Below, in pieces: positions 11,661 through 57,634 of a stretch of DNA of 64,000 bases. The DNA is taken from the sequence record OM858838; one strand, 5' to 3'. The first letter of the stretch is position 1; every line of letters starts with the position of its first letter. The stretch is from Shigella phage B2. Both the position numbers and the translations under genes were made by a program. The notes beneath the pieces are model-generated. The model saw only the letters and a list, made by a program, of their open reading frames with translations, had not been told where the DNA came from and did not search any database.

Positions 11661-11665
11661 AAAAT

Positions 11666-11690: not shown

Positions 11691-11703
11691 ATAGGTAAAT
11701 GGT

Positions 11704-11937: not shown

Positions 11938-11939
11938 CC

Positions 11940-42611: not shown

Positions 42612-44237
42612 TTAAACCAGATAACTATCTATTCCATTGGATTGGGTTGGTTCAGGCATGTCCCATATACCATCATCCTGTACACCTCCTGTAGAGCCTT
42701 GTGAGGGCTTCCATACTTTAAGACACCCTAACATACTGATGGTATCAATAAAGTCGTCATGCTTGCTCTTAAAGCCCTCTACAGTAGCTAACTGAAGCTC
42801 ATCCATAGCTTCTAACATAATCTTCTCTTCTTTGAGTTCTTCAGGGAAATACATCTTACCTGCTTTGAACCAAGGAAGAACTGAGTTGAATCTCACCATC
42901 TTATTACTATTAGGTCGAATACCCGGTCTACTGTTATTGCCATCAGAGGCAAAATTGAACCAAATATTACGAGTCATCATCTCATTCTGAAGTAGCGGGA
43001 TGAATCCACCTTGCTGACCTGTAACTTCAATGCCTACAGATTGAGGTTGGTACTCTACAACTAGTCTAAATAGGTCATCAAAGTTCTTATCCATAAGCTG
43101 GCGTCTACAAATACCATCAACCCAGAACCAATCACCATTAGAGTTGATGGCCCATACAGAAATAACTGAATAGTCAGCAGACTGTTTCTCAGAAGTAGCA
43201 AAGTCAGTAGTGATATAGAAATTAAAATGACCTCTATTCAGCAGAAGAGACTTACGCTTATACCATTGGATATCAGAATCCATGACAAGCCTCTCTTCAT
43301 CAGAGGTAATTCGTAGCATCAATTCCTGATTGAATGCAGCAACCTGTCCAGTTGATACAGCAAGGTCGTATTGCCCTTTAACGAAGTCATATGAGAAGCG
43401 GTCTTCCCAAGCTCCTACAAATTCTTCACGAGAACATGGGAATTTCTCACAAATAGGGAATACGTTTACATACCAACCACCTGATTCTACTGCTTCATAA
43501 AGAATATCGTTCTTATTAAAGGGTGTTCCACTGAAAACAATCTTTCTACGTACAGGGTCGAGAGCATAATCGACACCTTTGTACACAGTATCCTTGATTG
43601 CCTGCATAGTTGACTTAGATTTAGCATCATCATCACTAACTAAGTCATCCAATACAGCTAAAACAGGACGTTTACCAAAGATTTTAGTACCACGAAGACC
43701 TGTCTTAGCACCAAACATACGAACACCTAGCTTATGCCCATCAGCATTAGTGAATTCTAGGTATGCATCAGTGAATTTGGCTTCAGGAATGTACTTCTGA
43801 AGGAATTCAGAGTTGTTATAACGGTATTCGATATTCTTTCTAAGTGATTTTACCCCGTTCTCCATTGAGTCAGAGACATAAATCATACCTTCGATTTCAC
43901 CAAATCCATCAATCTCCCCATATAAGGCAATATACAGAACCAGATACTCACCAAATAAGGTAGTTTTAGCCATACCACGAGAACAAAGATTGGCTAATCG
44001 AGTACGTTTACCTGCTAACTCATCAAGCATTTTAAGATGAACAACAGGAGTAAGGTTAGATTCACCTGCTTCACCATTAACCATCTTGATAAAGTTCACA
44101 TAGTTAATTGCGAATACAGAAGGAACATAGTTACCGTCATTGAGAGTGCTGTAATCAACAGTATTCAGCCACTCTACAACTGACTTTTTAACCATTGGGT
44201 CTTCTTTAATCATCGACACGTTCAGATTCTCCATCAA
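42612..44237 (-). CDS. terminase large subunit
   Basis: 541 aa; Walker A-like LCSRGMAKTTL, Walker B VLAVLDDLVSDDD. Confidence 0.7.
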   Translation of the reverse strand: MMENLNVSMIKEDPMVKKSVVEWLNTVDYSTLNDGNYVPSVFAINYVNFIKMVNGEAGESNLTPVVHLKMLDELAGKRTRLANLCSRGMAKTTLFGEYLVLYIALYGEIDGFGEIEGMIYVSDSMENGVKSLRKNIEYRYNNSEFLQKYIPEAKFTDAYLEFTNADGHKLGVRMFGAKTGLRGTKIFGKRPVLAVLDDLVSDDDAKSKSTMQAIKDTVYKGVDYALDPVRRKIVFSGTPFNKNDILYEAVESGGWYVNVFPICEKFPCSREEFVGAWEDRFSYDFVKGQYDLAVSTGQVAAFNQELMLRITSDEERLVMDSDIQWYKRKSLLLNRGHFNFYITTDFATSEKQSADYSVISVWAINSNGDWFWVDGICRRQLMDKNFDDLFRLVVEYQPQSVGIEVTGQQGGFIPLLQNEMMTRNIWFNFASDGNNSRPGIRPNSNKMVRFNSVLPWFKAGKMYFPEELKEEKIMLEAMDELQLATVEGFKSKHDDFIDTISMLGCLKVWKPSQGSTGGVQDDGIWDMPEPTQSNGIDSYLV

Positions 44238-44901
44238 TTACTAACTTGGTATGAGCTACTTCTTTAGCTGAATAGACTCCGCCTTCAATCAGTTGTCGCT
44301 GCTTCGCAGCTAGCTGTGAGGTTAATTCCCTCAGTTCACTAATTACACCACCTTCCTGCAATCCAACATTAAGTTCAATCTTATTGGCTTCAGGACGTTT
44401 GAGATGATTAAGTAATGAGTTAGCTGCTTCACACTTAACCTTCTCACTTTTAGCATTAAGCATTAAATCTGCTTGAACGTTAATAGCTTTCTGAAAGATA
44501 TCAGCATTAAGAACATGAGTTGGAACCAAAGTCTGTTCATAGATAAGGTTAACTAACTTACCTTTGTTGTATGCAGATACATAACAATGAATATCTTTAG
44601 TGGAAGTACCGGAGTTCAAGAAGTTTTGATATCGGTCTGGGAAAGTTTTTATATAAGCTTCAAAGTTGGTATGTCCCATTAGTTTAAAACTGACATACTT
44701 AACTGCGGATAAGTAGTCTTCAATCTTAAACTTACCATCCTTCATTACATGGGTATAAGACATTAAGTTATCTCTCAATACTTCACCCATAATGGGGTCA
44801 GAGAGAATCTTATTAATCTTATCCATTAAATCCTGATTAACACTGCCTTTATGATTTTGAGGCATTACAGCTTTAAACTGTTCTACTGATAACTGAGTCA
44901 T
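44206..44901 (-). CDS. hypothetical protein (terminase small subunit candidate by position)
   Basis: 231-aa ORF immediately upstream of and overlapping TerL. Confidence 0.35.
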   Translation of the reverse strand: MTQLSVEQFKAVMPQNHKGSVNQDLMDKINKILSDPIMGEVLRDNLMSYTHVMKDGKFKIEDYLSAVKYVSFKLMGHTNFEAYIKTFPDRYQNFLNSGTSTKDIHCYVSAYNKGKLVNLIYEQTLVPTHVLNADIFQKAINVQADLMLNAKSEKVKCEAANSLLNHLKRPEANKIELNVGLQEGGVISELRELTSQLAAKQRQLIEGGVYSAKEVAHTKLVIDGESERVDD

Positions 44902-44934
44902 AGTTACTCCGAAGGGGTTTACAAATAGATTATC

Positions 44935-44950
44935 AGTACTATATAGTACT
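44935..44950. promoter_or_regulatory. perfect 16-bp palindrome upstream of late operon
   Basis: agtactatatagtact, ~35 nt upstream of the - strand start at 44901. Confidence 0.3.
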
Positions 44951-45075
44951 TTTCACAGAAAGTAGAAGATTCTTAAGTGAGAGGTGTATTAGAACGTAAC
45001 GGACTCATTATCCAATCTACGTTCAGTTGTTAAGATTGCAGTCTTAATAACATTTGATGATACATCTCTCTCTTA

Positions 45076-45090
45076 AGCACCTTCGGTGCT
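45076..45090 (+). promoter_or_regulatory. TTC-loop hairpin (vRNAP-type promoter candidate) before tRNA cluster
   Basis: agcacc-ttc-ggtgct, no T-run after it. Confidence 0.35.
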
Positions 45091-45106
45091 CTCTTTGGAA
45101 AGTTTT

Positions 45107-45178
45107 GGTTCTATGGTCCAGTGGAAAGGATATTCCCCTGTCACGGGAAAGGCCCGAGTTCAATTCTCGGTAGAACCG
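45107..45178 (+). tRNA. tRNA-Asp (anticodon GTC)
   Basis: Hand-folded cloverleaf: acceptor ggttcta/tagaacc, D gtcc/ggat, anticodon stem ttccc/gggaa loop ctGTCac, T ccgag-ttcaatt-ctcgg, CCA encoded. Confidence 0.8.
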
Positions 45179-45185
45179 CCAATTA

Positions 45186-45260
45186 CAGGATATAGCTCAA
45201 GTTGGTTAGAGCACTCGGCTCATAACCGAGAGTGTCCAGGTTCGAAACCGGGTGGAACCA
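45186..45260 (+). tRNA. tRNA-Met-like element (anticodon CAT), acceptor stem unresolved
   Basis: Good D arm (gctc/gagc) and anticodon arm (ctcgg-ctCATaa-ccgag); the 5' end does not pair with the 3' tggaacc-a-cca in my fold. Confidence 0.35.
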
Positions 45261-45270
45261 CCAAATAATG

Positions 45271-45355
45271 AAGAGAGTCGTATAGCGGCCCAATACGCCA
45301 CCCGAACGTTACGACTAGTACGGAGAACACGCAGGTTCGAATCCTGCCTCTCTTC
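45271..45355 (+). tRNA. tRNA-like element without canonical anticodon arm (possible pseudo-tRNA)
   Basis: Perfect 7-bp acceptor aagagag/ctctctt, D arm gtat/atac, T arm gcagg-ttcgaat-cctgc; the 33-nt middle has no 5-bp/7-nt-loop hairpin. Confidence 0.3.
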
Positions 45356-45361
45356 ACAAAT

Positions 45362-45435
45362 TGTCTCATAGCTCAGTAGGTCAGAGCGTTCCCCTGATAA
45401 GGGAAAGGTCACTAGTTCGATTCCAATTGAGACAA
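45362..45435 (+). tRNA. tRNA-Ile (anticodon GAT)
   Basis: Acceptor tgtctca/tgagaca + a + CCA, D gctc/gagc, anticodon ttccc-ctGATaa-gggaa; T stem has two mismatches. Confidence 0.6.
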
Positions 45436-45579
45436 CCATCCAATAGATTACAGTTCGTATCTCTTAGGGGAATACACTTGTAATTGCGGCCCGATAGGAA
45501 AGGGTAATTTCTCGACGATGGGAGTAGACCATTGACTGTTTGGAATAGACAACTGACGCTGTGAACGAGAACAGGAACA

Positions 45580-45666
45580 AGATGAGTCGTATAATAGGCA
45601 AATACAATATTCATGTTTCGCTATAGGCATGGAGAAGGAACGTGAGTTCGAGTCTCACCTCATCAA
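45580..45666 (+). tRNA. tRNA-like element, paralog of 45271-45355
   Basis: Shares agaNgag-tc-gtat...atac 5' half and a ttcgagt T arm (gtgag/ctcac); 1:72 mismatch and no canonical anticodon arm. Confidence 0.25.
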
Positions 45667-45766
45667 TAGTTCTTATCAGGGATTACTTACTACTATATAT
45701 CATACATTACCTCGCCTGGTGTGTTGGTGTTACCTCGGTAGATAAGTAATCCACTAATAAGAATTT

Positions 45767-45849
45767 GGAAGATTCCGCTCAGTGGTGGGCAATCCGGTTT
45801 GAACCCGGAGGTGCTGGTAACGGTAGGGGTTCGACTCCTCAATCTTCCG
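45767..45849 (+). tRNA. tRNA-Ser (anticodon TGA), type II
   Basis: Acceptor ggaagat/atcttcc + g + CCA, anticodon tccgg-ttTGAac-ccgga, long variable arm. Confidence 0.7.
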
Positions 45850-45858
45850 CCAATATTT

Positions 45859-45931
45859 GATAGGATAGCTAACTCGGTAAAGCGGCAGACTGTTAATCTG
45901 CGACATTAGGGTTCAAATCCCTATCCCATCG
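45859..45931 (+). tRNA. tRNA-Asn (anticodon GTT)
   Basis: Anticodon gcaga-ctGTTaa-tctgc, T taggg-ttcaaat-cccta, acceptor with one A.C mismatch, CCA encoded. Confidence 0.75.
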
Positions 45932-46099
45932 CCAAACTTGCAGGTAACTCTGCAATCCGTGACCAGTCGGTATGTTTATTAGTATGTAAAAGGCTGGGCT
46001 TCCTGCCTCTCATAGCCATACTCTTAAATGAATAACTGGTAGTCCAGCCAAGCGCACGAAGATGGGGACCCTCACCATCGGACAAAACGAGGGTACTAA

Positions 46100-46173
46100 G
46101 CATCCTTAGCTCAGTTGGATAGAGCAGTAGCCTTCTAAGCTATTGGTCACTGGTTCGAATCCAGTAGGGTGTA
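46100..46173 (+). tRNA. tRNA-Arg (anticodon TCT)
   Basis: D gctc/gagc, anticodon gtagc-ctTCTaa-gctat, T actgg-ttcgaat-ccagt, acceptor with two G.U pairs, CCA encoded. Confidence 0.8.
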
Positions 46174-46177
46174 CCAA

Positions 46178-46250
46178 GCTCACTAAGTTCATATGGGTGA
46201 ACGCCTGCCTTGTAAGCAGGATGAACGCGGTTCGATTCCGTGGGTGAGCA
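46178..46250 (+). tRNA. tRNA-Thr (anticodon TGT)
   Basis: Acceptor gctcact/ggtgagc, D gttc/gaac, anticodon cctgc-ctTGTaa-gcagg, T cgcgg-ttcgatt-ccgtg, CCA encoded; unusual A at position 8. Confidence 0.75.
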
Positions 46251-46255
46251 CCAAT

Positions 46256-46338
46256 GGGAGTATGGTGAAATCGGTAGACACAAGGGATTTAAAATCCCTC
46301 GGCTTATAGCTGTACGAGTTCGAGTCTCGTTACTCCCA
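46256..46338 (+). tRNA. tRNA-Leu (anticodon TAA), type II
   Basis: Acceptor gggagta/tactccc + a + CCA, anticodon aggga-ttTAAaa-tccct, long variable arm, T acgag-ttcgagt-ctcgt. Confidence 0.85.
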
Positions 46339-46363
46339 CCAAATTAATACAAGGAAAATCCCA

Positions 46364-46540
46364 ATGCGTTTTATCCAAATGAATTCTGGACCTAATCGTG
46401 CAGAACGCCGTAAAGCGTCTCATAATATTCGCAGAACAGAAGTAAAATCTCGTGTAGCCAAACGTATGGACCGTCCTCACAAGATGGATATCATCGATGC
46501 TGGCTATAACAAAACGATGAATTTCTTCTTCCCAGCGTAA
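46364..46540 (+). CDS. small basic protein (58 aa)
   Basis: RBS AAGGA then ATG; MRFIQMNSGPNRAERRKASHNIRR...; host-like codon usage; below track cutoff. Confidence 0.35.
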   Translation: MRFIQMNSGPNRAERRKASHNIRRTEVKSRVAKRMDRPHKMDIIDAGYNKTMNFFFPA

Positions 46541-46670
46541 AGAACTCGCTGCCAGCGGGTGCCTGAGTACAACTGAGTGTGGGAGCTATCAACTCCACGG
46601 TATACTTTCCTTAAAGTCGGCTCACGAGTACAAGCCTCTCAGCTATGAGTAAATAGCACTAAGCCTCCTT

Positions 46671-46701
46671 GGTCACGCAGGGAGGCTTTTTTATTTCTCT
46701 T
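46671..46701 (+). terminator. rho-independent terminator
   Basis: agcctcc-n12-ggaggct followed by T6. Confidence 0.7.
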
Positions 46702-46727
46702 TTTCATAACATCTGAAGGATTACAAA

Positions 46728-47336
46728 ATGTCTGAAGTTAAAAAAGTTATTACCGTTTCTGACCGTTCTACCAAAGCTCTGGTAGTTGCTATTGCTGGCT
46801 TAGGCAAGATTGCCACTGACCTTCAAGGTCTAGGTGATATTACCGTTAAGTTGGCTGATGATATTGAATTCAAACAGTCCCAATTGGACAATCTGGATTC
46901 TGAATTCGAAAACAAATTCCGTGAATCTGCCGCACAACTGCGTCTGCGCGTACTGGAAGATGAAGAAGGTGTACTTCTGAACATGCTCCAGCAGCGTGGT
47001 CTGGCACATGTCACAACCTTAGCACTGAACGAACTGCAAGATAAGCTGGTTGAAGCCACCTCTGATAACTCAGAAGCTCTGGCTCAAGCTGAATCCGCTG
47101 GCTTCCGTAAAGGTGCTGCACAGTTCGAACAGAAACTGAAAGATGCCGATGCAAACCATCGTATTGCAATGGCTGAACTTACCGCTAAATCCAACGCGAA
47201 AGACGATAAAATCGCTCTGCTGGAAAGCCAACTGGAAGATGCACGTAAGCAGATTACTGCTGAACGTGAAACCCGTCTGGCAGTAGCACAGGCTGAATCT
47301 GCTCGTCAGGGTGTTGTAGTAAACACCGGTAAGTAA
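46728..47336 (+). CDS. coiled-coil protein
   Basis: 202 aa, Ala/Glu/Leu/Gln-rich; GC-richer, host-like codon usage. Confidence 0.5.
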   Translation: MSEVKKVITVSDRSTKALVVAIAGLGKIATDLQGLGDITVKLADDIEFKQSQLDNLDSEFENKFRESAAQLRLRVLEDEEGVLLNMLQQRGLAHVTTLALNELQDKLVEATSDNSEALAQAESAGFRKGAAQFEQKLKDADANHRIAMAELTAKSNAKDDKIALLESQLEDARKQITAERETRLAVAQAESARQGVVVNTGK

Positions 47337-47964
47337 TAAACTCAGATTGTCGTTTTACTACGACGATTGGGATAGCAAGCTGGCTCTGCTTAAACCAGCG
47401 CATAGTAATGAGAGCATTTGCAGGGGCGATGGATTGATGTTATTTAACCATGCGTGTAAGTGTTCTCTTTACTATGCTGCCATAGTAACCCGAAGATTGC
47501 TTTCCTTAGAGGAAGCAGAGTTTAAACAGGTATATCCTGTCCTGTATTGAAGGTGTAACAACTGAATATACCAGAGTACTAGAACTCTGTTACCGAACTC
47601 AGGGAGTTGCTGGCCTAACCAGCTTAACATCCTATCAATGAGTACACTTGATTGAGGTCAGAAGATGAAATGAAGCTTCTGTAAAATGAATCCACAGAGT
47701 GTACTCTTTGATAGTTTTCGTATGCGATTATGCGGTTTTTTAAAAACGAACCATAAAACATAAATGCAAACGATGATGTTGTTCTGATGGCGGCTTAACA
47801 GCCTATAAATCAGTGAGGTATTCCAGTTCCTCATAACAGAATCTGGCGCACTGGCCCGGTGTGATTAATAATGGGCAACCAATATCTCTTTAAGTGTATT
47901 GAATCAGTATATTTACAGAGATACGCGCCAAGTATATCTCACTTCCGAATACGTTGATTATTTT

Positions 47965-47991
47965 GCCCATCTCCCTTGATGGGCTTTTTTT
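47965..47991 (+). terminator. rho-independent terminator-like hairpin
   Basis: gcccatc-tccctt-gatgggc followed by T7. Confidence 0.6.
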
Positions 47992-48085
47992 ATCCCAATC
48001 CCCGCCTTACGCTTATGCGCTTCCATCGCTCACTACGTTCGCTCGGAGCGCTTCGCTTCAGGCTAGTCGTAGGAGACTCTTAAGA

Positions 48086-49348
48086 ATGTCTACCCCTTGT
48101 GAAAGATTAGGTTATAAAGAAGGAATGCAGTTCACTCTCGTCAACGATGATGTTGATGGATTGAGTGCTGGTGATACCCTCTGGCTTCATAGTGATGATG
48201 GTTCACATAATCCTGAATTCCGTGATACTGAAAAAGTAAACGATGATACTGAAACCTACTACATCGATTTAAACTGTGTAGCTCGTTGTACCGAAGATGA
48301 AACACTCGCCTATAACCGTGGCTTAAGAGAAGGAGATATCCTTCAGATGGTTATGGATGATGATGGTGAGGAAGCCTATGAAGGCGATATCATCACATTC
48401 ATCAAAGATGATGGAGATACCTGTCCTCAATTTGAAGTACAGAAGGATGGTAATAAGGCTTACCTGTACCTCTCTCATGTAGGTGGATTAGAACCTAAAG
48501 TAGGTCGTAAGGTTCGTGTAATCCATAACTGTACTGGTGGGTTCTCTTCAGGTACTGAAGGAACTATTGTTGATATCTGTTCTGATGGGGACTATTTGAT
48601 TGCAGCACGTGGAGATACCATGTATCACCATGCTGACTCCTGTATTGTCTTCGGCTATGCAGATGACGAATCCTCTGACAGTAAAGACCCTGAACCAGTA
48701 AAAGAAGATTACCCAACTAAACCTGCTTCTGAATGGAAACAAGGTGATAGAGGTATTGTTCGTGGTCAGCAAGATAATGACCCACATAACTTCCAGATTG
48801 GTGAAGAGATTACCTTTGAACGGGGAAGAGACTCAGAAAGAGGTATCTTCCGAGGTACTAAGTACACTTCTACTCAAAACATTCAATATGATTTGATTGA
48901 AGTAGTCTCTATTGAACCGTACCCAATCACTGTTACTAAAGTATCCAAAGAGAATCCTGTAGCCTGTATCAAAGCTATACGTGCTGCTACTGGGTTAGGT
49001 TTGTATGAAGCTAAACAAGCTTATGACTTTGTTAGAGATAACGAAGAACCATACAGCTTACAGATAATCATCTCTAAAGGTGAGTTAACTCATCTCTTTA
49101 CTGAAGCAGGTATCGAATACTTCTTTGATAGACAAACTGAAGTATCTGGAACCAAACCAACAGTAATCATCTGTGATGAGTTAGCTGATACTTCTAAGAA
49201 GTATAAATACTTCATTGATGGTGATTCCATTGAAGTAACATTAGTTGGATACTTCGAAGGTGAACCCATCTGTGCTTACAAAGACAGATGGGGTGATATT
49301 CAAACCTTCGTAGCTAAACAATCACTTCTGGTATCTGATGATGACTAA
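48086..49348 (+). CDS. acidic protein with ribosomal L7/L12 C-terminal-domain-like segment
   Basis: Start set at ATG 48086 after TAGGAG RBS (track 47954 start runs through the terminator); segment PVACIKAIRAATGLGLYEAKQ and following ISKGELTHLFTEAGIEY resemble E. coli L7/L12 CTD (recalled as [26 protein letters not shown]). Confidence 0.5.
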   Translation: MSTPCERLGYKEGMQFTLVNDDVDGLSAGDTLWLHSDDGSHNPEFRDTEKVNDDTETYYIDLNCVARCTEDETLAYNRGLREGDILQMVMDDDGEEAYEGDIITFIKDDGDTCPQFEVQKDGNKAYLYLSHVGGLEPKVGRKVRVIHNCTGGFSSGTEGTIVDICSDGDYLIAARGDTMYHHADSCIVFGYADDESSDSKDPEPVKEDYPTKPASEWKQGDRGIVRGQQDNDPHNFQIGEEITFERGRDSERGIFRGTKYTSTQNIQYDLIEVVSIEPYPITVTKVSKENPVACIKAIRAATGLGLYEAKQAYDFVRDNEEPYSLQIIISKGELTHLFTEAGIEYFFDRQTEVSGTKPTVIICDELADTSKKYKYFIDGDSIEVTLVGYFEGEPICAYKDRWGDIQTFVAKQSLLVSDDD

Positions 49349-49517
49349 ACTACCTGGCATTGGTACTAAACCTTTGTTTGTAATTGATGGCCTCAATCCT
49401 GTTGAGGTCTCTATTGTCGCCCACTACAAAGACAAAGCTGTATTCATCTACTTAACCAAAGATAAGTTTGAACGAGTAGATATGGCTACAGCTCCCTGCT
49501 TCAGGAACCAAAAGTAA
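49341..49517 (+). CDS. small ORF (58 aa), possibly translationally coupled
   Basis: ATG 49341 precedes the upstream stop at 49346-49348 by 5 nt. Confidence 0.25.
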   Translation: MTKLPGIGTKPLFVIDGLNPVEVSIVAHYKDKAVFIYLTKDKFERVDMATAPCFRNQK

Positions 49518-49519
49518 TC

Positions 49520-49762
49520 ATGGTAAAAGACCCACTTGCTCTCTCATTAGAAAAACGTAAGCTATGGAGAAGGGCTGCTACTCGATGGTTAGAACTATTA
49601 ACATCCAGAGACTTAACAGCTACTGAGATGGATTGGGTCTTAGCCAGAAGAGACTATTGCACTAGAAAGACTAAGAGAGCAGAACCTCTTATAGATTCTG
49701 GAGTAATACACGGAGCACCTAACTCATTTATCTATGATTACTTTGGCTTTCTCCGTAAATGA
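49520..49762 (+). CDS. hypothetical protein
   Basis: 80-aa ORF followed by a 9-bp hairpin at 49766-49788. Confidence 0.35.
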   Translation: MVKDPLALSLEKRKLWRRAATRWLELLTSRDLTATEMDWVLARRDYCTRKTKRAEPLIDSGVIHGAPNSFIYDYFGFLRK

Positions 49763-49878
49763 ATAATGGGGTACAGATAGTACCCCATTTCATAAACCAG
49801 TATCAAACCAATAGTAACTAACTCTATCACTAACCATTTCATCTCCCTACCCTCATAACATTCATAGGAACCAATCCA

Positions 49879-50121
49879 ATGAACGAAATCATTATACTCT
49901 CTTCTCTTGGTTTTATCTTTGGTTGGATTACATCAAGAGTTAACTACAAACGTAAGATTATTAGATGCATTAGTAACATTACCTTTGAATCTAACTCTTC
50001 TAACAAGGATTTCAAGAATGGTATAGACAGGGGAATAGAATCTACTAAAGACTACATAATCAGAGTACTTATCAACAACAAGTTAGATAAGGATTATAGT
50101 AAAAGATATAATAAAGACTAA
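49879..50121 (+). CDS. hypothetical small membrane protein
   Basis: 80 aa, N-terminal hydrophobic helix, very AT-rich. Confidence 0.3.
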   Translation: MNEIIILSSLGFIFGWITSRVNYKRKIIRCISNITFESNSSNKDFKNGIDRGIESTKDYIIRVLINNKLDKDYSKRYNKD

Positions 50122-50332
50122 CTAACTACTGTCAATATGTAATTTAATACAGTACTAACTAAGGAATACCAATGAAGTTACATGATATCTTATTCATAGT
50201 ACTAGCTATTGTACTGTTTGGATTAGCAGTATATCTAAGTAAATAATTATTATTTTTTAAAGGGTTAGAGAATTTTTAATAATTACTTACCAATGTAGTA
50301 TTACTGCACACAATCTTTTATTAATCCGAATA

Positions 50333-50343
50333 CCCCCCCCCCC
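50333..50343. repeat. C11 homopolymer tract
   Basis: atac-c(11)-atac in an AT-rich intergenic region. Confidence 0.9.
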
Positions 50344-50360
50344 ATACTTCACACATCCAT

Positions 50361-50373
50361 GAGTCTTCGACTC
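50361..50373 (+). promoter_or_regulatory. TTC-loop hairpin + GTGGAG (vRNAP-type promoter candidate)
   Basis: gagtc-ttc-gactc then ta-gtggag, ~45 nt upstream of 50419 ORF. Confidence 0.4.
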
Positions 50374-50418
50374 TAGTGGAGCAATGGTGCTCTACTTAAT
50401 CATGATTAGGAGTATGTT

Positions 50419-50760
50419 ATGAAACCTGTTAACTCTATCGGTATCTTCGGTGCTGTATCTTCCTCAACTGTATCTGCATTGAATGCAATTGAACGTGGTG
50501 CAGTAGCTGTAGCCAATACTGCCAACATGGCTGTAGCTGTTACTGAATGGGGCAATGATGAAATCGAGAACCTTCGTCATCACCGTGCTATCAAACGTGA
50601 GGTAGAGGGTGAAATCTTCCGTACTAAATATGTTATGGAAGCTGCTAAAGAAGTAGCAGAAGTACATGCAGAAGCAGAGAAATCCATGAAGGATGCATCA
50701 CCAGAGGTTAAAGCAGTGTTCGATGCACTGGTAGCCAAACATTTGGGTAACAAGAAATAA
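50419..50760 (+). CDS. hypothetical early protein
   Basis: 113-aa ORF with AGGAG RBS. Confidence 0.45.
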   Translation: MKPVNSIGIFGAVSSSTVSALNAIERGAVAVANTANMAVAVTEWGNDEIENLRHHRAIKREVEGEIFRTKYVMEAAKEVAEVHAEAEKSMKDASPEVKAVFDALVAKHLGNKK

Positions 50761-51173
50761 TCACTAAGGCTCAAGGATGAGCCAAGGAACAATTATGTTA
50801 ATCAACATTGAAATTATTATCCGTAAACTAAAGTGCAAAGCAATCTATCATCTGAATGTTATTGCTCTACATGCATACGCTAAAGGTCTACGTACCTCCG
50901 GTAATATTACATCAGTAGCTGTACGGTATGTACGTATCAAAACCATATCTTCATCACTGTAATCAATCTCTTACCTCTGGCTAATGCTGGAGGTCAAGAG
51001 CAAATCACACATTACACATATGATAGATAGTATGTATATATTACCAGTGTATAAACATACACCATGCTGTAACGCTCTAGGAAGCTCTACAAGAGGTTTT
51101 GAGAAGAGGTAATAGGGTAGGAGAGTTGATACTATTCTATCTCAATCTAGGTAGCATTGAGGACTTATATTGC

Positions 51174-51203
51174 ACTTACTTCGTAAGTATCTCACTTCGT
51201 GAG
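51174..51203 (+). promoter_or_regulatory. tandem pair of TTC-loop hairpins (promoter candidates)
   Basis: acttac-ttc-gtaagt and ctcac-ttc-gtgag, 3 nt apart. Confidence 0.4.
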
Positions 51204-51205
51204 TA

Positions 51206-51544
51206 ATGGGTAGAGCAAAAGAGAGAATTCACATGGCTATCATCCATTCAATCATTGGTTCTAATTCAGAACCATCAACAGTAGTAGTCAACAAGTATAA
51301 GGAACCATACGATGTATATATCGGTAGAGGTAGTCTATGGGGAAATCCTTATACAGTTCAAGAACATGGCAGAGAACTATGCATTGCAATGTATGAGCAA
51401 TACATACGTGCAAGACTACATCAAGAACCTGATTTATATCTTCAATTACTTGAGCTTAAAGGTAAGAAGCTAGGCTGCTTCTGTAAACCTAAACCATGTC
51501 ATGGTGATGTATTAGTTAGACTCATCCAAGAGTACTCAAACTAA
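51206..51544 (+). CDS. conserved-domain protein (YIGR...WGNP...CxC...CHGD motif), start uncertain
   Basis: DVYIGRGSLWGNPY...GKKLGCFCKPKPCHGDVL; true start may be the internal Met at 51233 because the hairpins abut 51206. Confidence 0.45.
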   Translation: MGRAKERIHMAIIHSIIGSNSEPSTVVVNKYKEPYDVYIGRGSLWGNPYTVQEHGRELCIAMYEQYIRARLHQEPDLYLQLLELKGKKLGCFCKPKPCHGDVLVRLIQEYSN

Positions 51545-51602
51545 TAATCTAATACCCTTCAATTCCAATAAACATACTATAGAGCACTTAGTTACTATCT
51601 AG

Positions 51603-51827
51603 GTGTTCAGGAGTGTATTTATGTCTATTAAATTAACTGTTGTTGCTAAACGTTATAACTCAGAGAAACTCATCAGAATACTTATGCCATGGGGTTCTAA
51701 CATCTCATATGGTAGACGTTGGCAAGTGTCATTTAGGGATGGTAGAGGTAGACACTATGACCATTCATTCGTAGCTAAACCAACTCGTAAACAGATTCGT
51801 AAACTCATCAAGGATATCAACAAATGA
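51603..51827 (+). CDS. hypothetical protein
   Basis: 74-aa ORF. Confidence 0.35.
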   Translation: MFRSVFMSIKLTVVAKRYNSEKLIRILMPWGSNISYGRRWQVSFRDGRGRHYDHSFVAKPTRKQIRKLIKDINK

Positions 51828-52114
51828 AACAGTACAAATTACTTGAAGGCTTTCACTCTATGCTTCCTCAAGAAGCTATCGTTCCATCTCAACCATCAGA
51901 CGTTCAGGAAGGTGATTACGTCAAGATTGGTGTAGAAACCAATGATGGTAAAGCAACAGAGAAGTTCTGGGCTGTTGTGTACTGCATTGACAGAGATAAC
52001 TGGAAGTATGGAGTACGTATCAATCAAGACCTCTGTCAAACTCAATTACATGGTCTTAGTGATGGTGATGAACTCATTGTTGAATTCAAACATATCGTAG
52101 CTGTTATTAAATAG
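51824..52114 (+). CDS. hypothetical protein
   Basis: 96-aa ORF. Confidence 0.4.
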   Translation: MKQYKLLEGFHSMLPQEAIVPSQPSDVQEGDYVKIGVETNDGKATEKFWAVVYCIDRDNWKYGVRINQDLCQTQLHGLSDGDELIVEFKHIVAVIK

Positions 52115-52200
52115 GAGCTATCAAATGGAATGGTGGTTAGCAGAGATTGTACCTAGCTTATTCGGAGCTATCGTAGGTGGTCTGGTTGTATATCTAGCTG

Positions 52201-52446
52201 TTGCTAAAGGAGAGGATGATGATGATGCGTAAGTCATTACATGTAGGTACTAAAACTGATGTTATTAAACGTCGCTCTAAACCAGTATTAGATGTGGAAT
52301 TTTTACATGTACGTATTAGTGAAACTTATAATGAATGTGGTCAGATGATTGCTGCTGGTGTTAATCCTTATGCTGCTGTTGTAGCTATGGATACCAAGCT
52401 CAGTCGTATTGTTACATTCAATCATCCTAATCTTCTGAACATGTAA
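52201..52446 (+). CDS. hypothetical protein
   Basis: 81-aa ORF. Confidence 0.3.
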   Translation: MLKERMMMMRKSLHVGTKTDVIKRRSKPVLDVEFLHVRISETYNECGQMIAAGVNPYAAVVAMDTKLSRIVTFNHPNLLNM

Positions 52447-52453
52447 TATCTTC

Positions 52454-52470
52454 ATCACCGTCTTCGACGG
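52454..52470 (+). promoter_or_regulatory. TTC-loop hairpin + GTGGAG (vRNAP-type promoter candidate)
   Basis: caccgtc-ttc-gacggtg followed immediately by gtggag. Confidence 0.45.
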
Positions 52471-52506
52471 TGGTGGAGTTCTCCCTTAAGTTCTCCTTCT
52501 CCTGTA

Positions 52507-52521
52507 AGAGCGACTTCGTCG
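52507..52521 (+). promoter_or_regulatory. TTC-loop hairpin + GGTGGA (vRNAP-type promoter candidate)
   Basis: agcgac-ttc-gtcgct followed by ggtggaa; ~45 nt upstream of 52565 ORF. Confidence 0.45.
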
Positions 52522-52564
52522 CTGGTGGAATAATCCAATTCAATTAACTATCGAGGTAATTATC

Positions 52565-52981
52565 ATGGCAGTATTAAACGGTTCTAACAACGCTTCTTCT
52601 ATCATCGGTGCTGCTCTGGGTGGTAAACCTGCTGCTGGTGCACAGCGTCCACAAGCTGAAGTATTTATCAACGTTGGTATCAACGTACAGATGCCTAACG
52701 AAGAAGGTGAGATGGTTGATACCTTCCTGTCTCTGCCTTTCGGCCTGCCGTTGGATACCATGAATGAACTGGTGATTCGTGGTAATAACCAGCAGTGGAA
52801 TGAGCAGGCTGCTGCTCGTAATGAGCTTCTGAAAGCTCTGGTCAAAATGGGTGAAGCTCTGGATGCTGGTACTGGTACAGAGATGCCTAAGCTCAGTGTT
52901 CAACTGTATCGCCGTAAGGCTCAGGAAGAACATCAGGCCAGCAACAACGCAATGGCTCAGATTCTGGCTGCATTGAGCTAA
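52565..52981 (+). CDS. early protein, host-like codon usage
   Basis: 138-aa ORF with ctg/cgt/ggt-rich codons, flanked by two hairpin promoter candidates and a strong terminator. Confidence 0.55.
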   Translation: MAVLNGSNNASSIIGAALGGKPAAGAQRPQAEVFINVGINVQMPNEEGEMVDTFLSLPFGLPLDTMNELVIRGNNQQWNEQAAARNELLKALVKMGEALDAGTGTEMPKLSVQLYRRKAQEEHQASNNAMAQILAALS

Positions 52982-52990
52982 TCGAATAAT

Positions 52991-53019
52991 GGGATACCTT
53001 CGGGTATCCCTTATTTTTT
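52991..53019 (+). terminator. rho-independent terminator
   Basis: gggatacc-cttc-gggtatccc then ttatttttt. Confidence 0.8.
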
Positions 53020-53028
53020 GGAGGGGAC

Positions 53029-53211
53029 ATGCGTGTATTAGCAGTGTTAATTCTGTTTCTAGTTATCTTCGGGAAACTAGTACTCAATGTTATCGAAGAA
53101 GATACAGTGCAATACCAGCATCAAATGAAATGCGTCAAAGAGAAGATTGCCAACGGGATTCCTCGTAGTGCAATCAAGTTAACTACTGATTCATGTGAGG
53201 TTATCAAATGA
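53029..53211 (+). CDS. small membrane protein
   Basis: 60 aa, N-terminal hydrophobic helix. Confidence 0.35.
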   Translation: MRVLAVLILFLVIFGKLVLNVIEEDTVQYQHQMKCVKEKIANGIPRSAIKLTTDSCEVIK

Positions 53212-53375
53212 ATTTATTCTTGTTGTTAGTGTTCATCGTGCTGCGCACGCTCATTGGGTTGTTCTGGTTTGTAGTGGAAATGGTATGGTTCCTGTTCTGC
53301 GTAATGATTGGAATCCTATCTTTACCCTATTACTTAGGTGTCATCATCAGAGCAGTAGCTAAGCCCTCGAAATGA
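53208..53375 (+). CDS. small membrane protein (55 aa)
   Basis: ATGA overlap with upstream stop; MNLFLLLVFIVLRTLIGLFWFVV...; below track cutoff. Confidence 0.35.
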   Translation: MNLFLLLVFIVLRTLIGLFWFVVEMVWFLFCVMIGILSLPYYLGVIIRAVAKPSK

Positions 53376-53405
53376 GGGCTATATTACGCTTAAGGTAGAT
53401 AGTCA

Positions 53406-53609
53406 ATGAATGGAGATTTGATAGATATATTAGAACTAATAGTTGTTCTCAAATTAGGTAATAGAAATAAAGTATGTAACCACATAATGATACATAGAAT
53501 GTGTAATGATATTCCATGTAGTGAATGCCTACTTAATACAAGTAAAGTATATATTTCTGACTATCCAATTCAAATCATTGAAATGAAAGGTAAGCTAAAT
53601 GAACAATGA
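53406..53609 (+). CDS. small four-Cys protein, paralog family member 1
   Basis: MNGDLIDIL... with C-x8-C-x4-C-x2-C. Confidence 0.5.
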   Translation: MNGDLIDILELIVVLKLGNRNKVCNHIMIHRMCNDIPCSECLLNTSKVYISDYPIQIIEMKGKLNEQ

Positions 53610-53811
53610 TTTATTCTTAATTCTTAGTTCTATTAAAGCTGCATTAGGTGAAGGTAGAGGTAAAAATACTTCTGCTGATTTTCTATGTAATGGTATTCAT
53701 GATACTGACCCTGAACAATGTCATTATGTTAATTGTATTGATTGTATAGTTGGATATAAAGATTCAACTAAATATGCACATCAGATAATCCAGACATGGA
53801 AAATATTATGA
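53599..53811 (+). CDS. small four-Cys protein, paralog 2
   Basis: MNNDLFLILSSIK..., C-x10-C-x4-C-x2-C, C-terminal YAHQIIQTW. Confidence 0.5.
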   Translation: MNNDLFLILSSIKAALGEGRGKNTSADFLCNGIHDTDPEQCHYVNCIDCIVGYKDSTKYAHQIIQTWKIL

Positions 53812-54017
53812 ATAAAGAACTTAAGTTAATTTTATTTACTTTAAAAATGAAAATTAAATTTGGTAATGGAACTGCCGAAAACTTATGTAGAAGTATGGTA
53901 ATAGATATTGATGGAGAATTAATTCCTCAATGTACTCAAATTTCTTGTTTTAATTGTCTATTTTATCAAGATTCTACTTATGCAGAAAAGGTAATACATG
54001 TCTGGCATCAACTCTGA
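53808..54017 (+). CDS. small four-Cys protein, paralog 3
   Basis: Start at ATGA overlap; MNKELKLILFTLK..., four Cys, YAEKVIHVW. Confidence 0.5.
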   Translation: MNKELKLILFTLKMKIKFGNGTAENLCRSMVIDIDGELIPQCTQISCFNCLFYQDSTYAEKVIHVWHQL

Positions 54018-54243
54018 ATTATTATTCATACTTCAAAGTATTAAAAACTCTATGGCAAAAGAAGAAGTACAAAATAAGAGAGGTATTCAATGGGGAGAAT
54101 CAGATAAATTGTGTACAGAACATTTATATAATGTATGTGGGGATAAAACATCTAAAAATATATGTGATGATTGCTTAATTGGATACAAAGATAATGTTGG
54201 ATATGCATCCAATATGATTATTGTAATTCAAAAGTTAATCTAA
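53998..54243 (+). CDS. small four-Cys protein, paralog 4
   Basis: ...NSELLFILQSIK..., C-x8-C-x8-C-x2-C, YASNMIIVIQ. Confidence 0.5.
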   Translation: MSGINSELLFILQSIKNSMAKEEVQNKRGIQWGESDKLCTEHLYNVCGDKTSKNICDDCLIGYKDNVGYASNMIIVIQKLI

Positions 54244-54316
54244 GGGCTATCAATATTGGTAGTCCAATATTAATGTCTCGTTAGATAGTTGTACTTCAAT
54301 CCAAGAGGATATCAAT

Positions 54317-54556
54317 ATGTCAAAGAAAACTAAGTCAGCTAAACCAGTAGAAGTTAAGTTAGGTAATGTTCCTGATTATACAGTGACTTATAGTCGTCAA
54401 GAACAGTTATGGGGAGTCCATATTAATGGTATCTCTGCATACATTCTCAAACGACCTATTGGTAAAAAGAATATGTATTACGTAGGTACTCGTTATTTCA
54501 AAACACTACGTGATGCAATCTTCAGTGTTGTATTGGGGAATTCACTTCCCTTCTAG
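54317..54556 (+). CDS. hypothetical basic protein (not of the Cys family)
   Basis: 79-aa ORF preceded by an AT-rich 8-bp hairpin at 54252-54271. Confidence 0.4.
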   Translation: MSKKTKSAKPVEVKLGNVPDYTVTYSRQEQLWGVHINGISAYILKRPIGKKNMYYVGTRYFKTLRDAIFSVVLGNSLPF

Positions 54557-54564
54557 GAGAAGTA

Positions 54565-54738
54565 ATGAACCAAGAGTTAATACTTATTCTCTCAGCCATT
54601 AGAGAAAATAAAGGAATATGTACTAAATATTCTGTTAAATGTCATGGAATAGATTGTGGAAACTGTATTCTAGCAGAAGTATATATACAAAACTTCTACA
54701 AAGATTATATAGTTAAAATGGGTGAGAGAATATTATGA
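54565..54738 (+). CDS. small four-Cys protein, paralog 5 (57 aa)
   Basis: MNQELILILSAIR..., C-x6-C-x4-C-x2-C; below track cutoff; stop overlaps next start. Confidence 0.45.
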   Translation: MNQELILILSAIRENKGICTKYSVKCHGIDCGNCILAEVYIQNFYKDYIVKMGERIL

Positions 54739-54965
54739 ATAGAGAATTACTAACAATAATAGAATCTCTATGTAAAAAGGTAGTATTTAAAAGCCATTCA
54801 GGGCTAGAGTTCATAGAAACTAAGCCTGAAATGTGTCGTATTATTTCATTAAGAGTTCCTCGTAGATGCGAAGGAACTAGTTGCTGTAATTGTTATTTCT
54901 CAAGGAGTAAACAATTACATGAAGTTTATACTTTATATTTAAAAAGACTTATTCAACGTATTTAG
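54735..54965 (+). CDS. small Cys-rich protein, paralog 6
   Basis: MNRELLTIIESL..., Cys cluster ending CCNC. Confidence 0.5.
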   Translation: MNRELLTIIESLCKKVVFKSHSGLEFIETKPEMCRIISLRVPRRCEGTSCCNCYFSRSKQLHEVYTLYLKRLIQRI

Positions 54966-54987
54966 TTTTCCTTGTCGCTTCGCTCCT

Positions 54988-55000
54988 CAGCCTTCGGCTG
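54988..55000 (+). promoter_or_regulatory. TTC-loop hairpin + GGTGAA (promoter candidate)
   Basis: cagcc-ttc-ggctg then ttctggtgaa, ~30 nt upstream of 55031 ORF. Confidence 0.35.
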
Positions 55001-55030
55001 TTCTGGTGAATTATAAACTTAGAGGTAAAT

Positions 55031-55534
55031 ATGTTAGAAGCTCGCGGTAATATGCTTGAAATGGAATGTGATGCGTTGTGCATTACTACCAATGGATTTG
55101 TTAAAAGCAATGGTGCATCAGTTATGGGTGCTGGTATTGCAAAGCAGATGCGAGTAACTATTCCTGGACTGGATAAAATTCTAGGTCAGAAGATTGCTCG
55201 TGAAGGTAACAATGTTCATTTCTTATTAAATTATAACAATATTGGAATTGTATCCTTCCCTGTTAAACCAATAACAGAAATTAGTAATGGTGAGAACTTT
55301 GTTAAACATAAGTTCTTCCCTGTAGGTACAACAGTTCCGGGATGGGCATGTAAAGCAAACATCGATTTGATTGTACGTTCATGCCAGCAACTGGTAGCAC
55401 TGGCTGACCAATATGGTTGGCAGAAAGTCTTATTACCAAGACCGGGATGTGGTGCTGGTGAGCTTAACTGGAGCCATGTGAAGAAGGTTATTGAACCTTT
55501 GTTAGATGACAGGTTTATCGTCTGCACCTATTGA
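55031..55534 (+). CDS. macro-domain-like protein (possible ADP-ribose binding/hydrolase)
   Basis: N-terminal DALCITTNGFVKSNGASVMGAGIA resembles the macro-domain Gly-rich block; 167 aa. Confidence 0.4.
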   Translation: MLEARGNMLEMECDALCITTNGFVKSNGASVMGAGIAKQMRVTIPGLDKILGQKIAREGNNVHFLLNYNNIGIVSFPVKPITEISNGENFVKHKFFPVGTTVPGWACKANIDLIVRSCQQLVALADQYGWQKVLLPRPGCGAGELNWSHVKKVIEPLLDDRFIVCTY

Positions 55535-55541
55535 GGTGAGT

Positions 55542-55745
55542 ATGGGTAACCAATTAATAGTAATATTTAAAGAATTACTTCACTCAGGAGTGAATCCTAC
55601 TTTATGTCATAACTATATTGGCACTGAATGTGTAGACATACCATCATGCGCAAATTGCCCTTTATCTAGTACTTCATTCGCAAAACATCCTGAAAGAAAT
55701 TTCCCTAATCAGTTATTTACTGTATTGGAGAAGTTGAATGGATAA
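55542..55745 (+). CDS. small four-Cys protein, paralog 7
   Basis: Start at ATG 55542 after GAGGTGAG; MGNQLIVIFKELL..., C-x8-C-x6-C-x2-C. Confidence 0.45.
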   Translation: MGNQLIVIFKELLHSGVNPTLCHNYIGTECVDIPSCANCPLSSTSFAKHPERNFPNQLFTVLEKLNG

Positions 55746-55968
55746 ATTAATTACCATTTTAAATGGAATATATAATTTACCTGAACGCAAAGACTACGCT
55801 CCAAAAGAGTACATATGTGATTTAATCATATGTCCTGATGTACTTTGCAGTAATTGTCCAATGGGCAACCCACATTATTTAAATCCTGACAAAGAATTAT
55901 TTGTCACTCAAATCCATAAAACATTGGAAGTCATGAACCATGAAACAAGAAACTCAACTCCTGATTGA
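55738..55968 (+). CDS. small four-Cys protein, paralog 8
   Basis: MDKLITILNGIY..., C-x4-C-x4-C-x2-C. Confidence 0.45.
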   Translation: MDKLITILNGIYNLPERKDYAPKEYICDLIICPDVLCSNCPMGNPHYLNPDKELFVTQIHKTLEVMNHETRNSTPD

Positions 55969-56863
55969 ATCTATGTTCAACCGTCACCAATCTCGTGACC
56001 TAATTAGAAATGAAATTAGAACTTCACCTGAAGTTATGGAGTTAGTTAGTGCTGCTGTAGATAAAGCACTGGAATGGGTAGAAGGTGATTACTTTGAAAG
56101 TAAGAACAAACGTCTGGCATTATTGGATACCAATATCCTAGAAGACTTCTACATTGATGTTGCTGGTTCATTGGCTCAATTTGGTAAGGCTAAGTATACC
56201 CAGATAGTAGGTATGGTATCTGGAATGATTTCTACTATGCCTCAGAAAGAGGCTATAAGGACTGCTGGAGAGCTTATCTCATTAGCAGCTATGGTAGACC
56301 TCATTGACCTGATTCCAGCCTCTATGAGCGTTACAGGCTCTATGGAACTGGTATCCCGTATACAGCTTGAACCAAAGACATTGGAACTGATTAACCAGTA
56401 TCAATATCTGCCTCCTATGCTTGTTCCCCCTGAACCAGTTAAATCAAATACTGGTAGTGGGTATCTGTCCATCAAATGGGATTCCCTGATTCTGAAGAAG
56501 AATCATCATGAGTTTGATATCTGTTTGGATAATATCAACAGATTTAACTCAGTAGCTTTCTCTCTGGATGACCGTGTAATCCGTAATATTAGGGATAACC
56601 GTAAACATCTGGATAGTGCTAAAGCTGATGAATCTGCTGATGAGTACAAAGCACGAGTTGATTCATTTCTGAAAATGGAAAAGGAATCTATGCGTGTATT
56701 TGCAATGCTCATCAATGAAGGGAACAGATTCTATCTGACTCACAAGTATGACAAACGAGGTCGTACTTACTGTCAGGGCTATCATGTCTCCTACCAAGGG
56801 AATACCTATCGTAAAGCTATTCTTGAATTAGCTGATAAAGAAATCGTACCCATTGAGGAATAA
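55940..56863 (+). CDS. RNA polymerase II small subunit candidate
   Basis: 307-aa ORF lying 770 bp upstream of the catalytic subunit gene, matching the two-gene RNAP II layout of N4-like phages; assignment is positional. Confidence 0.45.
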   Translation: MKQETQLLIESMFNRHQSRDLIRNEIRTSPEVMELVSAAVDKALEWVEGDYFESKNKRLALLDTNILEDFYIDVAGSLAQFGKAKYTQIVGMVSGMISTMPQKEAIRTAGELISLAAMVDLIDLIPASMSVTGSMELVSRIQLEPKTLELINQYQYLPPMLVPPEPVKSNTGSGYLSIKWDSLILKKNHHEFDICLDNINRFNSVAFSLDDRVIRNIRDNRKHLDSAKADESADEYKARVDSFLKMEKESMRVFAMLINEGNRFYLTHKYDKRGRTYCQGYHVSYQGNTYRKAILELADKEIVPIEE

Positions 56864-56865
56864 TC

Positions 56866-57006
56866 ATGTTTTGCATTATTACAGCAGCATATCTACGTCT
56901 TAAGAATAAGGTAGATGAAGATATAGTAATTGGTTCATGGCTTGCTGGTTTATTAGAGCTATGTCTTGAAGTACCAATGATTTTAACTTTAGCAGGTAAA
57001 CTTTAA
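56866..57006 (+). CDS. small hydrophobic ORF (46 aa)
   Basis: Tight coupling to flanking genes. Confidence 0.25.
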   Translation: MFCIITAAYLRLKNKVDEDIVIGSWLAGLLELCLEVPMILTLAGKL

Positions 57007-57626: not shown

Positions 57627-57634
57627 GACTCAAG

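Follow-up and report, generated by a model that had tools for sequence, protein, structure and literature searches.

Hairpin promoters read by a virion RNA polymerase (vRNAP) are a hallmark of N4-like phages. The subject here is a set of small DNA hairpins in Shigella phage B2 and how they compare with promoters of that type; the DNA analysed, referred to below as the window, is a stretch of 64,000 nucleotides from sequence record OM858838. The N4 sites are P1 (genome 90-102, GTTGC-ttc-GCAAC-ttaTGGA), P2 (genome 557-573, AAGAAGC-tcc-GCTTCTT-tTGGA) and P3 (genome 4546-4562, AAGCTGC-tcc-GCAGCTT-tTGGT), and the pattern CTYCG-N7-TGG in N4 bases 1-12000 matches these three and nothing else. The introduction of a 2026 cryo-electron microscopy paper on the N4 vRNAP counts three early promoters, and the discussion of the same paper has "four early promoters (P1-P4)" (PMC13492108); the scan of N4 1-12000 finds three sites of the P1-P3 type. 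By the N4 numbering the loop centre is -11, the contacts are -8G, -9C and -10G, and four template A's precede +1 (PMC4496689), which agrees with the P2 oligonucleotide (PMC13492108). Two further phages offer comparisons. Nine early starts have been mapped in Pseudomonas phage LUZ7 by ONT-cappable-seq (PMC9163698), and Klebsiella phage KP8 has four hairpins predicted in silico, P1-P4, with the form stem-GC-TCC-GC-stem-N-TGG(A/G) (PMC6950046), all of which match CTYCG-N7-TGG. The N4 review explains the stability of the template hairpin by a GNA loop (PMC4496689), the same loop that is found in the d(GCGAAGC) mini-hairpin (PMC13037366), which is a structural motif and not a genetic element.

The window holds five sites of this kind, called A to E below, that are very probably early promoters read by the injected vRNAP of this phage. 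They share a stem of 5-7 bp, a C-TTC-G loop core and a TGG located 10-12 nt after the loop centre; with the loop centre set at -11, T-G-G falls at -1/+1/+2 in each of them (hairpins at 50361, 51191, 52456, 52509 and 54988). The original prediction had listed seven TTC-loop hairpins as candidate vRNAP promoters, and all seven are present in a scan for exact hairpins with a stem of at least 5 bp and a 3-nt loop: five at the coordinates it gave and two displaced by 2 nt (52456-52472 and 52509-52523, not 52454-52470 and 52507-52521). The stem is 5 bp long at 50361-50373, 51191-51203 and 54988-55000, 6 bp at 45076-45090, 51174-51188 and 52509-52523, and 7 bp at 52456-52472. No T-run follows any of the seven, as had been claimed, while the proposed GTGGAG/GGTGGA just after the stem is found at 50361, 52456 and 52509 (0-2 nt away) and not at 54988, 51191, 45076 or 51174; the 54988 stem is followed by ttctGGTGAA and the 51191 stem by taatGGGTAG. 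The tails after the stems of A to E are tagtggag, taatgggt, gtggagtt, ggtggaat and ttctggtg, and the T-G-G register that they have in common is missing at 45076 and 51174.

Short palindromes of 5 bp are common, and the window has 114 such hairpins (stem of at least 5 bp) where about 80 are expected, so that one might take the sites for chance palindromes. The composition of the set speaks against this. TTC is the most frequent 3-nt loop, with 11 of the 114 hairpins compared to 1.42 +/- 1.15 (maximum 5) in 200 dinucleotide-preserving shuffles, and TYC-loop hairpins with an in-register TGG occur five times where shuffles give 0.03 +/- 0.16. The simpler pattern CTYCG-N7-TGG, which fixes the closing pair alone and demands no further stem, has exactly 5 matches in the 64 kb on both strands (1.05 +/- 1.02 expected; 0/100 shuffles reach 5), and all five lie on the + strand, span 4.65 kb and have at least 4 additional base pairs each. 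Sites that match the full motif at 5 versus 0.03 expected, and that are in addition clustered, on one strand, syntenic and covarying, refute an origin by chance, which we consider to have a negligible probability. Other pattern matches were judged to be due to chance: at 12655 the loop is TAC and the site falls within an open reading frame (ORF), at 2637 the 4-bp stem has a T-A closing pair, and the strand of 30415 and 30847 is wrong for the genes there. The TTC-loop hairpins that had not been listed before are 40260, 44298, 59797 and the terminator at 62186. Separately, the + strand has 13 hairpins that combine a C-TNC-G loop with a stem of at least 5 bp and the - strand has none, where only about 1 per strand is expected. 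The 13 are the five promoters, two members of a second family described below, the hairpin at 51174, one terminator and four that are unexplained, of which 12655, 53237 and 59797 are within + strand ORFs and 44298 is within a - strand gene.

The phage itself is, on homology, an N4-like phage (Schitoviridae, Ithacavirus-like): its early region is about 90% identical to those of the Salmonella phages FSL SP-058, UTK0001/2, SP154 and As2 (Schitoviridae, Humphriesvirinae, Ithacavirus), and its more remote relatives are Pollock, Pylas, KpCHEMY26, MY01 and TR2. Because position 1 of the relatives' linear records maps to about 50334 of the window, the window appears to be a permuted copy of the genome, in which the sequence from 50334 on is the genome left end and 45000-50333 is the right end, with its tRNA cluster. 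A run of 11 C at 50333-50343 lies precisely at the start of the relatives' linear records, at the predicted physical left end. All five sites are at most 4.7 kb from the left end mapped in this way. The window lacks 7.4 kb of the genome, which were inspected through the relative UTK0001; they contain one CTYCG-N7-TGG match, intragenic and stemless (L023:4416), which is the chance rate. The enzyme proposed to read promoters A to E is the 3741-amino-acid vRNAP encoded at 13188-24413 on the - strand, identified by BLASTP homology to N4 gp50 (E = 2e-176, 25% identity over 2827 amino acids).

The five sites, all on the + strand, stand in front of genes that suit an early role. Promoter A (GAGTC-ttc-GACTC, 50361-50373), recovered by the hairpin scan, the pattern and the comparison with relatives, has its predicted start at G 50378, about 27 nt inside the genome left end and 41 nt upstream of the ORF at 50419-50760 (gene 1), and it lies in the terminal-repeat region as annotated in Pollock and Pylas. 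Gene 1 has no homology to N4 gp1 by BLASTP and no Pfam match. Promoter B (CTCAC-ttc-GTGAG, 51191-51203; predicted start G 51208) is upstream of a gene for a DUF4326 protein (Pfam). The start codon of this gene is probably ATG 51233, because the predicted B start falls within the ATG at 51206; the shorter coding sequence beginning at ATG 51233 is the one annotated in UTK0001, Pollock and Pylas. Promoters C (CACCGTC-ttc-GACGGTG, 52456-52472; predicted start G 52475) and D (AGCGAC-ttc-GTCGCT, 52509-52523; predicted start G 52527) form a tandem pair, 52 nt apart, with the predicted start of D 38 nt upstream of a homologue of N4 gp2, the single-stranded-DNA-binding cofactor of RNAPII (52565-52981, + strand; 33% identity and E = 3e-15 against N4 gp2; annotated as N4 gp2-like in Pollock and SP-058). 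Promoter E (CAGCC-ttc-GGCTG, 54988-55000) has its predicted start at G 55005, 26 nt upstream of a macro-domain gene (55031-55534, weak Pfam Macro match) that heads a + strand operon (55031-58861) containing the RNAPII small subunit (55940-56863) and large subunit (57623-58861), an identification supported by Pfam RNA_pol PF00940 and by 36% identity (E = 5e-48) to N4 gp15. The predicted leaders from A to E are 41, 25, 90, 38 and 26 nt long, and each ends in a ribosome-binding site. Directly upstream of E, at 54973-54987, the sequence TGTCGCTTCGCTCCTC is invariant in 12/12 relatives and includes the N4-type heptamer core CGCTTCGC, with no stem possible; it may be an extra upstream determinant.

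This arrangement resembles that of N4 in several respects. First, the sites themselves share with the N4 promoters a 5-7 bp stem, a 3-nt loop, a template G-R-A closed by C-G, T at -1 and GG at +1/+2. Second, the early region is at the left end in both genomes and the promoters are co-oriented with the early genes. Third, there are positional analogues: A corresponds to P1 (terminal-repeat region, gene 1), C and D to P2 (gp2), and E to P3 (RNAPII operon). P1 even has the same TTC loop as A to E. There are differences as well: five sites are present here, not three, with a tandem pair and an extra site before the DUF4326 gene; the central template loop base is always A (as in P1), whereas it is G in N4 P2 and P3; and the GC-rich heptamer GCTYCGC of N4 has shrunk to CTTCG in the predicted sites. 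KP8, like N4, retains the GCTCCGC heptamer, while the clade of the window phage has TTC loops and variable bases at -8/-14. The LUZ7 early promoters (stem of at least 4 bp, conserved 3-nt loop, G start, more than three per genome) are like A to E, and the two strongest of them also stand in tandem, before the gene for Drc, an RNAPII-recruiting single-stranded-DNA-binding protein, in the place that the gp2 homologue takes here (PMC9163698). Drc and gp2 are non-homologous, however, and the LUZ7 starts are 13-14 nt from the hairpin centre with a tandem spacing of 33 nt, compared to 11 nt (inferred) and 52 nt in the window. Having more than three such promoters, which had been put forward as noteworthy, is thus nothing unusual, as four were predicted in KP8 (PMC6950046) and nine early starts were mapped in LUZ7 (PMC9163698).

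A motif search in relatives had been suggested as a way of checking the original prediction, and CTYCG-N7-TGG gives 4-5 syntenic + strand sites in each of the 12 relatives compared, which come from Ithacavirus, Pollockvirus, Pylasvirus and Triduovirus. Site A is invariant across the 12 relatives, and so is D together with its flanks. Site B has three stem versions (CTCAC/GTGAG, GTACC/GGTAC and CCCTC/GAGGG), all of which pair and keep the TGG register. At C, TR2 has ACTGGC/GCCAGT, equivalent to two compensatory pair changes, and at E, where the hairpin is found in all relatives, Pollock has CTGCC/GGCAG, one compensatory change. Covariation was counted over the 5-bp stem in 19 distinct promoter instances, including N4 P1-P3 and the four predicted KP8 promoters: the stem cells are 100% paired, with 41 double-change cells compared to 12.8 in shuffles (0/500 reach this value), and control stems slid along the alignment pair at 46% or less. 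Positions C9, T10, C12 and G13 of the promoter alignment are invariant over N4, KP8 and the clade of the window phage. A scan of IMG/VR with the site-D motif and a free stem returned 8 contigs only, several of them the same isolates, and added no diversity.

Hairpins next to genes can also act in RNA, as terminators or as stem-loops that stabilise or direct processing of a transcript, and some database records take them in this sense: the Pylas record calls the site-C hairpin a "terminator", and the Pylas and Pollock records annotate some of the hairpins likewise. Site C does directly follow a stop codon, and TTCG-type loops also occur in real terminators of this genome, at 52991 and 62186. 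But none of the hairpins has a T-run, and A to E, 51174 and 45076 were all missed by a terminator scan that finds 52991-53010 and others. The former follows closely on the gp2 homologue and has an 8-bp stem, a TTCG loop and a T-run (+ strand); it is the only canonical intrinsic terminator of the early region. Site A, about 27 nt from the physical left end, has nothing upstream to terminate. The conserved features are asymmetric and at a fixed distance (a T..C loop, TGG 11 nt downstream), which fits a ruler for a start site and not termination; A to E match mapped N4 promoters; and if transcription starts at +1, the hairpin lies outside the transcript. A role as terminators or RNA structures was rejected on the absence of T-runs, the position of A at the genome end and the asymmetric downstream motif at fixed distance, and is in our estimate very improbable. 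A search of 44000-64000 against Rfam (E <= 0.1) returned tRNAs and sub-threshold tmRNA-like matches only, none of them overlapping the hairpins.

The genes downstream bear on a different possibility, that the hairpins serve some other factor (RNAPII, the host sigma-70 polymerase, or a regulator that binds palindromes) as promoters or operators. Operator sites are typically inverted repeats, and the LUZ7 middle promoters, which are read by RNAPII, are hairpins too. Yet C, D and E drive the genes for the RNAPII cofactor and for RNAPII, so that the three promoters must already be active when RNAPII does not yet exist. The stems differ between sites and covary, a poor fit to a dimeric protein that binds a specific sequence, and the middle region has its own hairpin family with a different spacing. 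Nor are there good or enriched sigma-70 sites: over 44800-57000, sigma-70-like sites number 27 compared to 39.9 expected. Control by such another factor is accordingly rated improbable, and recognition by the vRNAP is preferred.

On the template strand, the loop of A to E reads C-GAA-G, which provides the G(-10), R(-11) and A(-12) of the N4 type with -9C/-13G as the closing pair and is the same stable loop, with a sheared G:A pair, as that of the d(GCGAAGC) mini-hairpin (PMC13037366). The steps of transcription can be proposed by analogy with N4 (PMC4496689). Negative supercoiling driven by gyrase would extrude the inverted repeats as cruciforms. The template (-) strand loop, 5'-C-GAA-G-3', would form the GNA mini-hairpin stabilised by the sheared G:A pair, and host SSB would melt the non-template hairpin, the weaker of the two. 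The vRNAP would then bind the hairpin of the template strand: it would stack on the purine in the middle of the loop (-11) and read -9C/-10G. The single-stranded spacer would serve as its ruler and place the GTP start at the GG, 11-12 nt away from the loop centre. The expected transcripts would cover gene 1 (from A), the DUF4326 gene block (from B), the gp2 homologue at high dosage (from C and D in tandem) and the macro-domain/RNAPII operon (from E), and these early transcripts would set up middle transcription.

Several points weigh against recognition of A to E by the vRNAP. A stem contact that is essential to N4 vRNAP, template -8G (PMC4496689), is not conserved: the template bases are T, A, T, A and C at A to E (non-template A, T, A, T and G). 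A missing -8G argues against recognition by N4's own enzyme, though not by the cognate enzyme, which is 25% identical to it. The catalytic Asp residues of the vRNAP are conserved together with the equivalents of K437/R440, and that of R904 is conserved in the MAFFT and BLASTP alignments alike, but the alignment of the recognition elements is ambiguous: N4 W129 falls on W1206 or Y1298 and R119 on E or R depending on whether MAFFT or BLASTP is used, and K114 is likewise placed differently by the two. An attempt to relate recognition residues of the vRNAP to the altered -8/-11 bases was dropped, as MAFFT and BLASTP disagree on the -11 recognition element. The start region of E varies among relatives (TTCTGG, TTGTGG, TAGTGG, TTAGGGG and TTGCGG), so that some have no T at -1 or have the GG displaced by one position. 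The start positions of A to E are predictions from the N4 ruler. Finally, nearest-neighbour DNA folding gives modest values (-2.8 to -6.9 kcal/mol, z from -0.6 to -3.2) with parameters that exclude the extra stability of a GNA loop; the energies are modestly better than those of shuffles and were kept out of the primary evidence.

The claim that these hairpins are vRNAP early promoters thus has strong support for 50361, 51191, 52456, 52509 and 54988, which have the N4 register, synteny in 12 relatives, compensatory stems and an early-gene context. It is not supported for the non-conserved 51174, which has no GG in register, nor, in the form in which it was made, for 45076, which lies at the right end, has its GG 3 nt further on and belongs to a separate family. 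Extending the promoter set to all seven has some appeal: the C-TTC-G loop core and the + strand are common to all, 45076 is strongly conserved, and the LUZ7 early starts at 13-14 nt from the hairpin centre indicate that a longer spacer is possible in principle (PMC9163698). However, 51174, with T at the ruler position, is lacking from half of the closest relatives, and the GG of 45076 is 14-15 nt from the loop centre, not 11-12. The latter shares its extended motif, TAA...NN-CTTTGG, with three other sites outside the early region, in which the loop centre is free and may be a pyrimidine, and 45076 is located at the genome end that enters last in N4 (PMC4496689). We consider it unlikely that all seven are vRNAP promoters. 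The hairpin at 51174-51188 (+ strand, ACTTAC-ttc-GTAAGT, found in the hairpin scan 17 nt upstream of B) occurs in 4/8 Ithacavirus genomes (the window, UTK0001, SP154 and UTK0002, and not SP-058, As2, S5 or SP-076); Pollock has a broken version and the Pylas group has none. At the ruler position its base is T instead of G, and there is no GG at the start register. As a promoter the hairpin was rejected for its lack of conservation and of a start motif, and it is probably a non-conserved bystander.

The hairpin at 45076 belongs to a set that we call class 2, with A to E as class 1. The 45076-45098 element (+ strand, ttAAGCACC-ttc-GGTGCT-ct-CTTTGG) is 9 nt upstream of the right-end tRNA cluster and forms a conserved island amid variable flanks (SP-058, SP154, MY01, Pylas), with different tRNAs downstream in different phages. 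A second element (cTAAGCGCC-tac-GGCGCT-gt-CTTTGG) is found at 62157-62179 on the + strand in the middle-gene region, with a canonical terminator (62186-62202) directly after it, and the missing 7.4 kb contain two more, at UTK0001 L023:4044-4075 (hairpin 4047) and L023:6326-6352 (hairpin 6329), again on the + strand. The common motif is TAA-A(G/C)NNCC-TNC-GGNN(C/G)T-NN-CTTTGG, with 6-bp stems; counted from the loop centre, the GG is 14-15 nt away. Each genome has four copies, every one of them between genes on the + strand and away from the early region. Their stems are 100% paired, with 12 double-change cells compared to 3.3 in shuffles (0/500 reach this value). The loop keeps T..C while its centre is free among orthologues (TTC, TAC, TCC), unlike the terminator beside 62157, which changes its loop type among phages. 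The Pollock record labels two of the class-2 copies as terminators. N4 has no class-2-like hairpins in the 55 kb scanned, where the C-TNC-G loops are those of P1-P3 and of one intragenic hairpin at 40147. Class 2 is a separate conserved family, undescribed before, and the sole element here that might be new in kind. A further observation is that the 15-mer ACTGCCttcGGCAGT at 59797-59811, within the ORF 59728-59991, equals the stem-loop of the class-2 element that follows the phosphatase gene (L023:6329-6343), without the CTTTGG tail.

What class 2 might do is suggested by LUZ7. Its middle (RNAPII) promoters are hairpins with GC-rich stems of 6 bp or more and loops of 3-4 nt; they start at a G some 15 bp downstream, and the middle region carries four of them (PMC9163698). 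The four class-2 copies resemble them in sequence. The template-strand GNA-loop hairpins of this genome fall into two families whose rulers differ: class 1 (C-GAA-G) has a predicted start 11 nt from the loop centre, and class 2 (C-GNA-G, the same type of sheared G:A loop) has its GG at 14-15 nt. It is a tentative proposal, less likely than not, that the class-2 hairpins are middle promoters for RNAPII with the gp2 homologue. Differences from the LUZ7 middle promoters have to be kept in mind: class 2 is defined by sequence conservation alone, a terminator comes immediately after one copy, and the partner here is a gp2 homologue, not Drc. In addition, N4, from which the prototype gp2 comes, has been reported with AT-rich, non-hairpin middle promoters.

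Other features around the right end were noted in passing. A sigma-70-like site (TTTACA-18-TATAGT, 10/12) at 44918-44947 lies in a conserved divergent intergenic region with a perfect palindrome, GTACTATATAGTAC, which separates the leftward late gene (start 44901) from the tRNA cluster; either the tRNAs or the late operon could have it as an alternative promoter. Rfam adds an eighth tRNA at 45188-45260 (37.7 bits, above the gathering score) that ARAGORN does not report. A non-coding RNA may be encoded by the 750 nt at 47337-48086, which have no convincing ORF and end in a terminator (47965-47984); the sub-threshold tmRNA-like matches are at 47697-47852 (23.7-29.2 bits compared to gathering scores of 47-50). 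For the right-end ORF 47954-49348, Pfam gives a weak hit to the C-terminal domain of ribosomal protein L7/L12 (E = 3.7e-5, slightly under the gathering score), and the same note appears in the SP-076 annotation.

Promoters A to E extend a known kind of promoter: they are expected for this phage family, sound, and unsurprising to a specialist. Promoters are not analysed in the papers on SP-058 and TR2, and no such analysis was found for this clade in the searchable literature. The result is a map of early promoters with five predicted start nucleotides for phages of Ithacavirus, Pollockvirus, Pylasvirus and Triduovirus, in which some database records label these hairpins as terminators, and with it comes a probable correction of the start codon of the DUF4326 gene (51233, not 51206). 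The comparison also separates what appear to be general determinants of N4-type promoters (the GNA loop, the C-G closing pair, the 11-nt ruler and the GG start) from those that appear specific to N4 (-8G and the GC-rich heptamer), which would be useful for engineering pairs of vRNAP and hairpin promoter as orthogonal systems for transcription of single-stranded DNA. If the class-2 hairpins are middle promoters, an enterobacterial N4 relative that encodes gp2 would use a hairpin mechanism in the style of LUZ7, not the AT-rich middle promoters of N4, and the tRNA cluster would be a middle transcription unit. The class-2 hairpins offer a concrete point of entry to the middle promoters of N4-like phages, which are poorly understood.

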